This document shows, piece by piece, positions 5,424 to 40,069 of a stretch of DNA of 51,690 nucleotides. The notes below the pieces were generated by a model. That model made no database searches. It saw nothing but the letters and a program-made list of their open reading frames with translations, and was not told the origin of the DNA. Position 1 is the first letter of the stretch; each line of letters starts with the position of its first letter. This DNA is from Candidatus Woykebacteria bacterium. Lineage in GTDB: Bacteria; Patescibacteriota; Microgenomatia; Woykebacterales; RBG-16-39-9b. Made by a program: the position numbers and the translations under genes. The DNA lies in the NCBI GenBank assembly GCA_040876265.1, contig JBBDPN010000001.1, forward strand, positions 1-51,690. The letters run 5' to 3'.

Positions 5424-5659
5424 GTTTAGAAGCTAGATTTCAGATGTCAGATCTAAGACGTATGAAGTGTATTTGAAATTTTTAATTCTCAATTTTTAGT
5501 TTTCATTCAATTTGCAAAATTTAATTTTAAATATTTAGATTTGTAGTCCATGAAATGGTTGCCGATTGTAAAGCAATCTATTAGAAAAATTGCAAATTTT
5601 AAATTGAAAATTATTTTTATAAAAGTGTTGTCAAGATAGTATTTACGCTCGAGTGGGTT

Positions 5660-12182: not shown

Positions 12183-14678
12183 ATGGATAGATATGATCCA
12201 ATTGTTATTGAGCAAAAGTGGCGGAAGCGTTGGGAGGATGAAAAGACTTTTAAGACCGATTTAAAGAACGCAAAGAAACCCTTTTACAACCTAATGATGT
12301 TCCCCTATCCTTCTGGTGAGGGTTTGCATGTTGGCCACGTTTACGCTTTTGGTGGTAGCGATACGTTTGGTAGGTTCAAAAGGCTGCAGGGTTACGATGT
12401 TTTCGAGCCAATGGGCTTTGATAGTTTCGGAATTCATTCGGAAAATTACGCCATTAAAACTAAAACTCACCCCAAAGATTTGATCGAAAAGACCACTGGC
12501 TATTTTCGAGAAAAACAGCTAAAGAGGCTTGGGGCCCTATTTGATTGGGATCGTCAGGTGATCACTTCTGATCCAGATTATTATAAATGGACTCAGTGGA
12601 TCTTTATTCAGCTTTTCAAGGCTGGTCTGGCCGTGCGTAAAAAAGCGCCTGTTAACTGGTGTCCCTCGTGTAAGACCGTTCTTGCTGATGAGCAAGTTAT
12701 CAGTGGACGCTGTGAGCGTTGCAATAGTGAAGTCGTCCAAAAAGAACTCGCACAGTGGTTCTTTAGAATCACTGAATATGCCGAAAAATTACTGAATAAT
12801 TTGGAGACCATAGATTGGTCGCAAAGCACCAAACTAATACAGCGAAATTGGATAGGCAGGAGTGAGGGTGCTGAAATCGACTTCCCAATTAAGGGCTCGA
12901 GACTGAAAATAAGGGTTTTCACCACGCGGCCAGATACAATATACGGGGCGACCTTTATGGTACTGGCTCCTGAGCATGAATTAGCACTAAAAATTTCTAG
13001 TGCTAAGTTTTCCGAGGCTGTAAGAGATTATATTGCACAAAGCAAAAAGGCAACCGAACTTGAGCGCTCCCAAGCTAAAACCGGTGTATTTACCGGTGCA
13101 TATTGCCTGAATCCATTTACAAACAAGCAGGTACCCATTTGGGTAGCCGATTATGTGTTAGGTATCTACGGCAGCGGTGCTATTATGGCCGTCCCTGCCC
13201 ATGACCAGCGTGATTTCGAATTTGCGAAGAGGCAAGGATTGAAAATAGTCAAAATCGTTAGTGGAGGTGTCGCTCAAGAAAAGGCTTACGTAGGGGAGGG
13301 AAAATTAGTCAATTCTGGCCAATTTAATGGTTTGAATTCGCAGGAAGCAATAGATACTATGTCAGACTATATAGAAAAGAATAAATTTGGCCGAAAAACC
13401 GTCAATTATCATCTGCGTGACTGGCTTATAAGTAGACAACGGTACTGGGGTCCGCCAATACCAATGATCTTCTGTGCGCTCTGTGCTAAAAAGGGAGATG
13501 GCGAAAAAGCCAAGGATAGGGTGGTTCATCCCGGGTGGTACGCGGTACCTGAAAAGGATCTCCCAGTAAGACTGCCACATCTAGAAAACTATCAACCCAA
13601 AGGTCGTGGTGTCAGTCCTCTGGCTACTATGCCAGATTTTGTGAGCGTGAAGTGTCCAAAATGCGGAAAAACCGCCCGGCGTGAAACTGATGTTTCGGAC
13701 ACATTTTTAGACTCGTCCTGGTACTTTCTCCGTTACCCTTCGACTGAGTTTAAAACGAAAGCTTTTGATCAAAAAATAACCAAAAAATGGCTTCCAGTAA
13801 ACTCTTATATCGGTGGGAACGAGCACGCGGTAATGCACTTGCTCTATAGTCGGTTTATTACGATGGCGCTAAAGAGCTTGCGCTTGATTGATTTTGAGGA
13901 GCCGTTCAACAAGTTTAGGGCGCACGGTTTGATAATTCACAAAGGTGCCAAGATGAGTAAGAGCAGAGGCAATGTTGTAAATCCAAATGATTATATGGAT
14001 GCTTACGGTCCAGATGCTTTGCGGATGTACCTATTGTTTATTGGTCCTTATGATCTTGGCGGTGATTTTTCCGATCGGGCGATAGCCGGGGTTTACCGGT
14101 TTCTAAATCGAGTGTGGAAGCTCCTCTTGGGACTTGGCAAAGGAACTCAGGTAAGTGCTAGCGATAAATTAAATAGAGCGATAAATAGGCTCGTATTGAA
14201 GGCTGGCGAAGACCTAGAGAGTTTAAAATTTAACACCGCCATTGCAGCTATTATGGAATTTACAAACTTAGCTTCCAAGCACAAAAACGAATTCGACAGA
14301 GGAACAATCGAAAAATATTTGATTGTTTTATCCCCTTTTGCCCCTTTCACCACCGAAGAACTCTGGGAAAGACTTGGGTTTCTAAAAGAAAAAGGTTCAG
14401 TGCACCACCAAGCCTGGCCGATCTCAGAAAGTAAATATTTAGAGGCTGAAAACGTTACGATTGCTGTCCAAATAAACGGAAAGCTGCGTGACACGATGGT
14501 AGTTGAAAGGTCAAAAATCGATCGCTTCGCGACCGGCGACCACTTCGTGGACTACAAAAGAGAAATAGAGACCTTGGCATTGAGTTCAAAGAAGGTAAAA
14601 AAACATGTTAATGGACGTAAGGTTCGAAGGGTTATTTACGTCCCTGAAAAGGTCTTGAATATAGTTGTAGATGTTTAA
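12183..14678 (+). CDS. leuS: Leucine--tRNA ligase
   Basis: MFPYPSGEGLHVGH (HIGH), KMSKS, editing domain GTGA-like GSGAIMAVPAHD; AGGAGG precedes ATG 12183. Confidence 0.98.
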   Translation: MDRYDPIVIEQKWRKRWEDEKTFKTDLKNAKKPFYNLMMFPYPSGEGLHVGHVYAFGGSDTFGRFKRLQGYDVFEPMGFDSFGIHSENYAIKTKTHPKDLIEKTTGYFREKQLKRLGALFDWDRQVITSDPDYYKWTQWIFIQLFKAGLAVRKKAPVNWCPSCKTVLADEQVISGRCERCNSEVVQKELAQWFFRITEYAEKLLNNLETIDWSQSTKLIQRNWIGRSEGAEIDFPIKGSRLKIRVFTTRPDTIYGATFMVLAPEHELALKISSAKFSEAVRDYIAQSKKATELERSQAKTGVFTGAYCLNPFTNKQVPIWVADYVLGIYGSGAIMAVPAHDQRDFEFAKRQGLKIVKIVSGGVAQEKAYVGEGKLVNSGQFNGLNSQEAIDTMSDYIEKNKFGRKTVNYHLRDWLISRQRYWGPPIPMIFCALCAKKGDGEKAKDRVVHPGWYAVPEKDLPVRLPHLENYQPKGRGVSPLATMPDFVSVKCPKCGKTARRETDVSDTFLDSSWYFLRYPSTEFKTKAFDQKITKKWLPVNSYIGGNEHAVMHLLYSRFITMALKSLRLIDFEEPFNKFRAHGLIIHKGAKMSKSRGNVVNPNDYMDAYGPDALRMYLLFIGPYDLGGDFSDRAIAGVYRFLNRVWKLLLGLGKGTQVSASDKLNRAINRLVLKAGEDLESLKFNTAIAAIMEFTNLASKHKNEFDRGTIEKYLIVLSPFAPFTTEELWERLGFLKEKGSVHHQAWPISESKYLEAENVTIAVQINGKLRDTMVVERSKIDRFATGDHFVDYKREIETLALSSKKVKKHVNGRKVRRVIYVPEKVLNIVVDV

Positions 14679-27232: not shown

Positions 27233-27489
27233 TTCCGGCGTTGATGCCTCTCCTTTAGTTTTTCCTGAAAATTATCTAGCTAACTGTGCGGGGGACAGGT
27301 TTCTAGAAAACAAAAATGGGACAGGTTGTGAAGGTGCAGGTACGATCGTCTCCTTTCTATGGGGTAACACTAATACAAAGTATTCCATAGTGTTACTTGA
27401 AAGTCAATCCCTACGTACTGCGAAACTAAAGTTTCTTAGTACTCCCGGTATTAGCAATTTTCGCTACGCTCAAATTGTCAAGCTGGGTT

Positions 27490-27524: not shown

Positions 27525-27704
27525 AAATAAAAAAAACGGTTTTTTCTAGTCCACGAAGTGGTTGCAGGATCCGAGAGTGCTTAGGAACTGGAAGTTTCGA
27601 ATTACGGAGGATACTTAGGAGCGGAGTGACGCAGCACCCGAGAATACTGAAAAACTTTAGTTTTGAAGTATGGAGGGTGCTATAACGAAGCAGTGAGGAG
27701 ATTT

Positions 27705-35898: not shown

Positions 35899-35972
35899 TG
35901 GCAGGCCCGGGAGGAATCGAACCTCCAATAGCGGTTTTGGAGACCGCCGTTATGCCGTTTAACTACGGGCCT
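35899..35972 (-). tRNA. tRNA-Trp(CCA)
   Basis: Anticodon loop CTCCAAA; encoded CCA. Confidence 0.95.
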
Positions 35973-35980
35973 AGGGGTAG

Positions 35981-36061
35981 CTACTTAACTTCACGGTGTA
36001 GAGTAGCTTTACGACAATTCTTGCAGAATTTCTTCAGTTCCAACTTGTCCTGAGTGTTCTG
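35981..36061 (-). pseudogene. Second, diverged copy of the rpmG 3' half
   Basis: Encodes [26 protein letters not shown], 22/26 aa and 61/81 nt identical to rpmG codons 29-55; no in-frame 5' half of its own. Confidence 0.85.
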
Positions 36062-36114
36062 ACATAGCCCACGAAGTCCCGATTCAATCGGGAGAAGTGG
36101 TCGCAGGCAGAATA

Positions 36115-36279
36115 CTACTTAATTTCCCTATGCGTTGTAGTTTTCCTACAGTTTCTGCAGAACTTCTTCAATTCTAACTTATCTTGAGTATTCTGCCTAT
36201 TTTTCTCAGTTATGTAATTTTGAGTTTTACATTCGGAACATTCCAATGTAATCAAAATCCGCGGACCTTTTTTTGCCAT
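36115..36279 (-). CDS. rpmG: 50S ribosomal protein L33 (zinc-ribbon type, 54 aa; not in ORF track)
   Basis: [54 protein letters not shown]. Confidence 0.96.
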
Positions 36280-39826: not shown

Positions 39827-40069
39827 GTTTGTTTACCCTTTTGTAGGTTTCTTATTCATTTTTGCACTTTTTCAAGTTCACTCAATTTTCATATAAGATC
39901 GCTCGTATTCTATGCCTCTTTCAGAGCCGAATACTCCGCGTCTTTAGTGGAAATTGTTCAGATTTTATTTAGTTTCATCCTCAAGTTGTTGCAACTCCCA
40001 CATCACCTCGCTCCATAGTGCGAAACACTTTGTTTCTTAATATTCTCGCGGCTGGTCTGGAAATTGGTC

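Follow-up and report, generated by a model that had tools for sequence, protein, structure and literature searches.

The locus analysed here lies in a window of 51,690 nucleotides, i.e. the whole stretch of DNA that was analysed (contig JBBDPN010000001.1 of assembly GCA_040876265.1), which belongs to the 834-kb genome of a Candidatus Woykebacteria bacterium (2 contigs, 43% G+C, completeness 100%, contamination 0.08%). All genes of the neighbourhood are carried on the minus strand, namely tRNA-Thr(GGT), tRNA-Tyr, tRNA-Thr(TGT), rpmG, tRNA-Trp, secE, nusG, rplK and rplA. The features at and after rpmG, including a copy of a structured palindromic repeat that we name E, are as follows.

36115-36279, minus strand: intact rpmG, encoding ribosomal protein L33 (54 aa, both CxxC knuckles)
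36115-36195, minus strand: copy A, the in-gene copy of codons 29 to stop
36187-36198, minus strand: left arm of an inverted repeat, AGGCAGAATACT on the gene strand, in rpmG codons 28-31
36105-36116, minus strand: right arm of the inverted repeat, AGTATTCTGCCT, overlapping the last two bases of the stop codon
36062-36114, minus strand: spacer of 53 nt
36063-36114, minus strand: short or partial copy of repeat E, consisting of the 3' strand of stem P1 and of hairpin P2
36065-36104, minus strand: hairpin P2 of this E copy, GCGACCAC..GTGGGCTA
36077-36093, minus strand: optional inner hairpin inside P2, TCCCGATTGAATCGGGA
35981-36061, minus strand: displaced copy B of codons 29 to stop, whose C-terminal peptide ends in ...FCKNCRKATLHREVK
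35899-35972, minus strand: tRNA-Trp(CCA), 8 nt after copy B

A sequence-only reading of this DNA had described an intact rpmG with codons 29 to stop repeated beyond a spacer of 53 nt, and its coordinates hold. Its counts were also exact: copies A and B are identical at 61 of 81 nt (75%) and 22 of 26 aa, the codon differences being 11 synonymous and 4 non-synonymous, while the longest run of identity between them does not exceed 8 nt. The two 81-nt direct repeats are in register and their starts are 134 nt apart; as had been stated, removal of 134 nt keeps the frame and leaves the stop intact. The perfect 12-nt inverted repeat is real, and the half that it encloses is the upstream, in-gene copy A and not the displaced copy B. 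That its paired boundaries are non-random was borne out, a length of 12 nt being reached in 1 of 2000 dinucleotide shuffles of the region. The left arm is ordinary conserved coding sequence, the motif being found in the rpmG of relatives as well, and the right arm corresponds to the P1 3' strand of E (positions ~37-52 of the model in the covariance-model alignment). The spacer hairpin noted earlier, CCAC..TCCCGATT-G-AATCGGGA..GTGG, is present in the minimum-free-energy fold, and the region has a z of -3.07 relative to shuffled sequence.

Copy B was recovered by tblastn with an E-value of 1e-10, and the same search of the whole genome returned no further sequence resembling the rpmG half-copy. 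Its frame is open through the spacer but starts from a TAA located within the rpmG end, and neither a credible start codon nor a usable ribosome-binding site was found for it, so copy B is not an independent gene. The 53-nt spacer contains no ORF. Expression of copy B by stop read-through or frameshifting was considered and rejected, given that 53 nt is not a multiple of 3, that the copy-B frame meets the TAA and that the -1 frame meets a TGA. A role of the hairpin as terminator was likewise dismissed, since it has no U-tract and received no terminator call on the minus strand. There is no terminator between rpmG and tRNA-Trp, and the relic thus sits in a transcribed spacer. A switch between zinc-binding and zinc-free L33 paralogues was discarded because the CxxC knuckle is kept in both ends.

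The consensus of E reads 5'-TATAGCnnnC TCCGTA..(variable hairpin)..TACTCT GnnnGCT GCGACCAC-(loop)-GTGGGCTA-3', that is, a stem P1 around a variable apical hairpin, directly followed by the hairpin P2. The latter has either a loop of 3-4 nt or an inserted hairpin (CTCCGATCAAATCGGAG), as at rpmG; this long-form insert is common to the rpmG copy and to those at C1:68077, C1:62259, C2:185708 and others. In an alignment of 14 E sequences, compensatory changes were found at 8 of the 16 predicted pairs. Most copies are bordered by TA..TA, a dinucleotide that is common in this DNA, and the comparisons yielded no clean pair of a filled and an empty site for E. When the window was searched with the covariance model R1, a match was obtained at 36063-36150 (E-value 0.033), in which the posterior probability is high for the P1 3' strand (AAGTAGTATTCTGCC) and for P2 and the 5' part is poorly aligned, indicating that the rpmG copy is a short or partial E. 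Its P1 3' strand overlaps the rpmG stop codon. The other copies in the window (full, short or partial) are listed below; two of them, near 27.5 kb, lie close together in opposite orientation.

5542-5582, minus strand: E copy
14516-14556, plus strand: E copy
27402-27468, plus strand: E copy
27545-27617, minus strand: full-length E (74.5 bits, E-value 3e-15 with the covariance model)
40009-40050, plus strand: E copy

In the whole genome, 34 E copies were found by regular expression and 38 by R1. The same model detected 1-55 copies per genome in 14 of the family's 16 other genomes, and no match in 24 genomes of other families in the class. Rfam gave no match at an E-value of 1 or below for the rpmG locus or for full-length E copies, only tRNAs being found. 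The repeat is mostly intergenic and occurs in both orientations relative to neighbouring genes, which favours a DNA-level repeat over a strand-specific regulatory RNA. E is dispersed, short, present in many copies, devoid of ORFs, hairpin-forming and terminally symmetrical, as MITE- and REP-like repeats are. It resembles small palindromic or MITE-like bacterial repeats such as REP, Correia and the Rickettsia palindromic elements (reviewed in PMC10969869 and PMC2229807) in being short, multi-copy, ORF-less, hairpin-forming, mostly intergenic, inserted in both orientations and variably present at orthologous sites, while it differs from them in its two-stem layout, its swappable inner hairpin and its tie to displaced gene ends. 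A long-form E was also seen in the region C2:83946-84948, ~480 nt upstream of one of the two tyrosine-recombinase genes of this genome (C2:84460-84948), which may be a coincidence. No description of this repeat or of such behaviour of gene ends in CPR bacteria was found in the literature consulted, which is not proof of absence.

The rpmG locus was then compared with those of relatives. A second L33 half-copy was found in none of 40 relatives' genomes (all of other genera) and in none of the 80 best metagenomic rpmG loci, with flanks of 1.5 kb. Its absence from these ~110 rpmG loci argues that the arrangement is lineage-specific and is not a conserved device, switch or intron. Nor was an integrase-bearing parent element seen at this site in the same flanks. 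E itself is variably present at the orthologous site. In G015, G012, G008 and the metagenome loci L032 and L042 a full copy starts exactly at the rpmG stop codon (TAG followed by CA...), and in G001 a few bases past it, whereas in other relatives tRNA-Trp lies 0-10 nt after rpmG. Since E is found at the rpmG stop in several lineages, an rpmG end together with E forms a natural contiguous block. Other configurations were noted in single relatives: L040 carries two complete, convergent rpmG genes ~120 nt apart, and in L057 and L059 a second L33 paralogue (36% identical) follows rpmG immediately.

The nearest available relative, the metagenome contig L031, matches the 5' half of rpmG at 69 of 84 nt (82%) and the displaced copy B at 63 of 78 nt (81%) and 24 of 26 aa, but the in-gene copy A at only 54 of 78 nt (69%). 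Copy B is hence closer to the working gene of L031 than to the neighbouring copy A. Among the positions that distinguish the two copies, L031 has the base of copy B at 14 and that of copy A at 5 (sign test, p=0.06). This suggests that the native gene comprised the 5' half and the displaced end, and that the in-gene end and E came in. With one relative and a p of 0.06 the comparison is only suggestive, and the direction, i.e. which end is native, is a point that we infer. Codon usage and GC3 did not separate a native from a foreign copy, and an exact-protein look-up of this L33 returned no other record. Neither an empty-site sister strain nor a donor allele was found among the sampled relatives.

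The neighbourhood of rpmG in relatives also contains tRNA relics. In many of them a whole new tRNA-Trp or tRNA-Thr separates the 5' piece from the 3' piece of an older and different tRNA gene: tRNA-Trp in L005 (G005), L006 (G006), L002 (G015), L022 (G021), L031, L041 and L043, and tRNA-Thr in L009 and L013. E is often inserted in the D-loop or T-loop of these relics, which look like scars of whole-gene replacement. In L042 (Ga0214473_10000525) the D-loop of the tRNA-Trp after rpmG appears to contain over 100 nt of inserted DNA unlike E, which may represent an intron or another insertion.

In a genome-wide screen, the last 40 residues of every ORF were compared with the 450 nt downstream of it. 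Paralogues aside, the only housekeeping genes among the matches were lepA and glmS, and both adjoin E; the repeat is therefore adjacent to all three displaced 3' ends of this genome (rpmG, lepA and glmS). The order of intact gene end, E and diverged second end at lepA or glmS was found in this genome (G000) and in five other genera, the differences between the ends being mainly synonymous.

lepA, G000, C2:206832-206975: the intact end is followed after 5-10 nt by a displaced copy of its final ~20 codons, which a full E interrupts; 42/60 nt identical, 12 synonymous and 3 non-synonymous differences
lepA, G001 (L160): short E, followed by a displaced end of ~31 codons; 42/63 nt, 8 synonymous and 6 non-synonymous (last 21 codons)
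lepA, G005 (L162): displaced end of 10 codons; 25/33 nt, 8 synonymous and 0 non-synonymous
glmS, G000, C1:398000-398190: end A, short E of 45 nt, end B, long E; 29/39 nt, 7 synonymous and 0 non-synonymous
glmS, G014 (L138/L142): layout of G000 plus a third, more decayed end past the long E; 24/39 nt, 10 synonymous and 1 non-synonymous
glmS, G015 (L145): end A, short E, end B; 29/39 nt, 9 synonymous and 0 non-synonymous
glmS, G004 (L150): end A, short E, end B; 25/39 nt, 9 synonymous and 2 non-synonymous

The glmS junction, CTA followed by AAACC, is the same in four genera. Between genera the displaced glmS ends differ almost only synonymously (10 synonymous and 0 non-synonymous differences between G000 and G015). 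The lepA breakpoints, on the other hand, are unlike among G000, G001 and G005. Duplications were also sought in the flanks of 27 E loci of other genomes, with two convincing cases, one at glmS in G014 and the other a displaced 5' end in G012; a displaced end is thus missing beside most E copies. In the latter case (L118, C6 ~359,200) a displaced start of 10 codons, MFTPKFKITN, is followed by E and then by the intact gene, which starts MYNPKFKITN (MYNPKFKITNKILNN...). At C2:65000-65560 of G000, a 66-aa ORF is followed after ~130 nt by a diverged copy of its 28 C-terminal residues (VMWDRTLSEAFEIIV... vs VMWDCTLSVAFERLV...); no E was seen there, and the copy may be a displaced end or a small paralogue.

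The divergence of the ends was examined by simulation. Copy B was duplicated in place and left to neutral drift up to 20 nt differences, half of which were allowed as synonymous changes of the working copy. An outcome in which at most 4 aa were changed, no stop arose internally and the terminal one was kept was reached in 0.4% of the runs for rpmG (P=0.004), and the joint value for rpmG, lepA and glmS was 3e-10. Drift in place is therefore rejected, which indicates that the ends diverged inside working genes of separate lineages and were joined recently.

We consider it likely that the rpmG locus is the scar of a gene-end replacement, and the presence of the same scar at other genes of these ultra-small CPR bacteria argues for a recombination footprint rather than a genetic switch. 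Ancestrally, rpmG would have consisted of its present 5' half and the now displaced 3' half (35981-36061), with tRNA-Trp directly after it. A block from a diverged relative, containing the 3' half of that allele and an E copy at its stop codon, would have been joined in register inside rpmG. The intact gene thus probably combines a native 5' half with a 3' half that came in, and this hybrid would be the version that is translated. Copy B is probably the native 3' end, moved 134 nt downstream and now part of the untranslated spacer before tRNA-Trp. The earlier suggestion that the locus is the scar of an rpmG-targeting element can be kept in so far as one 3' end would be foreign and the other displaced; a classical integrative element does not fit. 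With regard to the mechanism, we give slightly less than an even chance to a recombination event with DNA taken up from a diverged relative, in which the junction inside the gene would have been formed by homology and the one at the hairpin repeat by illegitimate joining, much as in homology-facilitated illegitimate recombination. In a two-step variant, E would land by the gene end and truncate the gene, and a foreign end would then repair it upstream of the damage. Such damage followed by a patch would explain the association with E, and the lepA relic is split by E as the variant has it. Since no identical run is longer than 8 nt, homologous deletion is unlikely and the scar would persist.

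Several other explanations have to be weighed against a gene-end replacement. A tandem duplication in place with subsequent decay of the downstream copy would agree with direct repeats in register, but we find it scarcely credible, since the simulation speaks against it for rpmG and far more so for the three genes jointly, and since the displaced copy is nearer to a relative's working gene than to its neighbour. An assembly chimera of two strains might be suspected in an uncultured organism whose two ends resemble two alleles. However, the end of E and the start of copy B share no sequence long enough to mislead an assembler, and the layout recurs at two further loci of a complete and almost uncontaminated genome in 2 contigs; its occurrence in independently assembled genomes of five other genera makes a chimera very improbable. 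We are equally sceptical of a functional device, in which alternative L33 C-termini would result if the 134 nt were deleted from the DNA, spliced out of the RNA or bypassed by the ribosome. The preserved frame, the coding potential and stop codon of the second end, and a fold better than that of shuffled sequence are in its favour. Nevertheless, it is conserved in 0 of ~110 relatives' rpmG loci, the layout is also found at lepA and glmS, where the alternative ends differ by 0-3 residues, both rpmG ends are zinc-knuckle forms, and the repeats are too diverged for homologous deletion. The minimal intron or recombination switch offered by the sequence-only reading finds no support either, given the occurrence of the layout at unrelated genes, the missing half-copy in relatives and the lack of any ribozyme or intron family match, Rfam returning tRNAs only.

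An att-site scar left at the rpmG 3' end by a tyrosine- or serine-integrase element, similar to the microCIMEs, has better precedent. As the sequence-only reading had stated, rpmG is a documented target of integrative elements, with gene-free microCIMEs of 130-220 bp at its 3' end (PMC7563491); an intact gene end, short gene-free DNA and a direct repeat of the gene end fit this layout, and the stacked glmS ends resemble tandem accretion. We regard it as improbable all the same. The absence of an identical run above 8 nt leaves no shared crossover core, the intervening DNA is a repeat of ~38 copies that mostly lacks flanking duplications, and the genome has only two Xer-like recombinases (PF00589; C1:160885 and C2:84460), far from rpmG, lepA and glmS. 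In addition, no second half-copy was seen in the fetched flanks of ~110 relatives' rpmG loci and the lepA breakpoints vary by genus. The most serious competitor, unlikely in our judgement though well above the others, is that E, as a mobile element that is active and non-autonomous, brings with it or directs a spare gene end and was inserted in register into rpmG. The unit would run from the left arm of the inverted repeat to the end of P2 (36198-36065), with the P1 stem enclosing the new rpmG end as cargo. This stretch is exactly 134 nt, equal to the spacing of the repeats, and has the layout of E, a 12-bp stem immediately followed by P2, with a non-random complementarity of 12/12. The association of E with 3/3 displaced ends in this genome and the two stacked displaced glmS ends in G014 are in line with it, and a glmS junction alike in four genera with displaced ends differing synonymously is what repeated directed events predict. 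On the other side, the new end of lepA lies outside a complete E, which splits the displaced copy instead, and the lepA breakpoints differ among the three genera. A flanking duplicate is missing from most E copies (present in ~2/27 E loci of other genomes), no enzyme partner was found when tyrosine recombinases were searched, and the 5' part of the rpmG unit scores poorly with the covariance model.

Gene-end replacement by passive recombination nevertheless does not account for every observation. A passive recombination scar would not be expected to contain a perfect 12-nt inverted repeat. The identical glmS junction, together with differences that are almost only synonymous, argues for recurrent events of a directed kind or else for selection acting on the displaced ends, and random illegitimate recombination would lead to neither. 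It is thus conceivable, although we would not expect it, that Woykebacteria, and probably other CPR lineages, have a recombinase-free process dealing in gene-end cassettes. In such a process the final 10-30 codons of conserved genes (e.g., rpmG, lepA, glmS, tRNA genes) might accompany E or be copied under its direction, a role of E that we put forward tentatively. Insertion in register would displace the resident end, and the process would be recurrent and partly site-directed; this too is a doubtful proposition, for which the glmS junction shared by four genera and the stacked ends can be adduced.

A number of known systems bear on gene-end replacement. In Allomyces macrogynus atp6 (Paquin et al., 1994; PMC45324) and in Glomus atp6, atp9, cox2 and nad3 (PMC3630166), mobile endonuclease ORFs insert a foreign C-terminus. 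In these fungal mitochondrial cases the inserted and native ends share 64-81% nt identity with nearly identical protein, the native relic is nearer to sister species, and the endonuclease was shown to drive mobility. The rpmG locus is similar in that an end was joined in phase and the native end appears displaced downstream, and the displaced end is nearer to a relative (14 vs 5 differing sites, p=0.06, suggestive only). It differs in that an ORF-less hairpin repeat of 53 nt, with no linked nuclease, lies between the ends. By analogy, C-terminus insertion in fungal mitochondria may be regarded as the closest functional counterpart. The microCIMEs of Streptococcus salivarius, found at rpmG, rpsI and fda (PMC7563491), share with our locus the target gene, the gene-free size class and the flanking repeats from the gene 3' end. 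Decayed integrative elements at the Streptococcus rpmG 3' end derive from integrase-bearing ICEs or IMEs and are in tandem with them (PMC7563491; PMC4701971), while here a crossover core, a cognate integrase and a parent element are all missing and the insert is a multi-copy genome repeat. In naturally competent bacteria, 'insertion with long target duplication' often concerns gene 3' ends and leaves direct repeats of tens to hundreds of bases (PMC2853133). Homology-facilitated illegitimate recombination, as cited in PMC6382021, can insert DNA without a dedicated recombinase. Long target duplications are near-identical (e.g., 44/46) because the target itself is copied, whereas the repeats described here are 70-75% identical with a synonymous bias, which indicates that one copy came from another lineage; at rpmG (61/81 nt), neutral decay from an identical pair is rejected.

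Taken alone, the rpmG locus is an ordinary and harmless, but instructive, scar. Relics of this type carry a risk for annotation, as they can be mistaken for mini-ORFs, split genes, introns or alternative exons. Should E prove to be the driving agent, it would represent a bacterial equivalent, devoid of ORFs, of the mobile elements that replace gene termini in fungal mitochondria. As a series, the scars suggest that core genes of streamlined uncultured bacteria repeatedly swap ends with diverged relatives at hairpin repeats, and they would be a visible trace of recombination in organisms that are thought to depend on DNA uptake.
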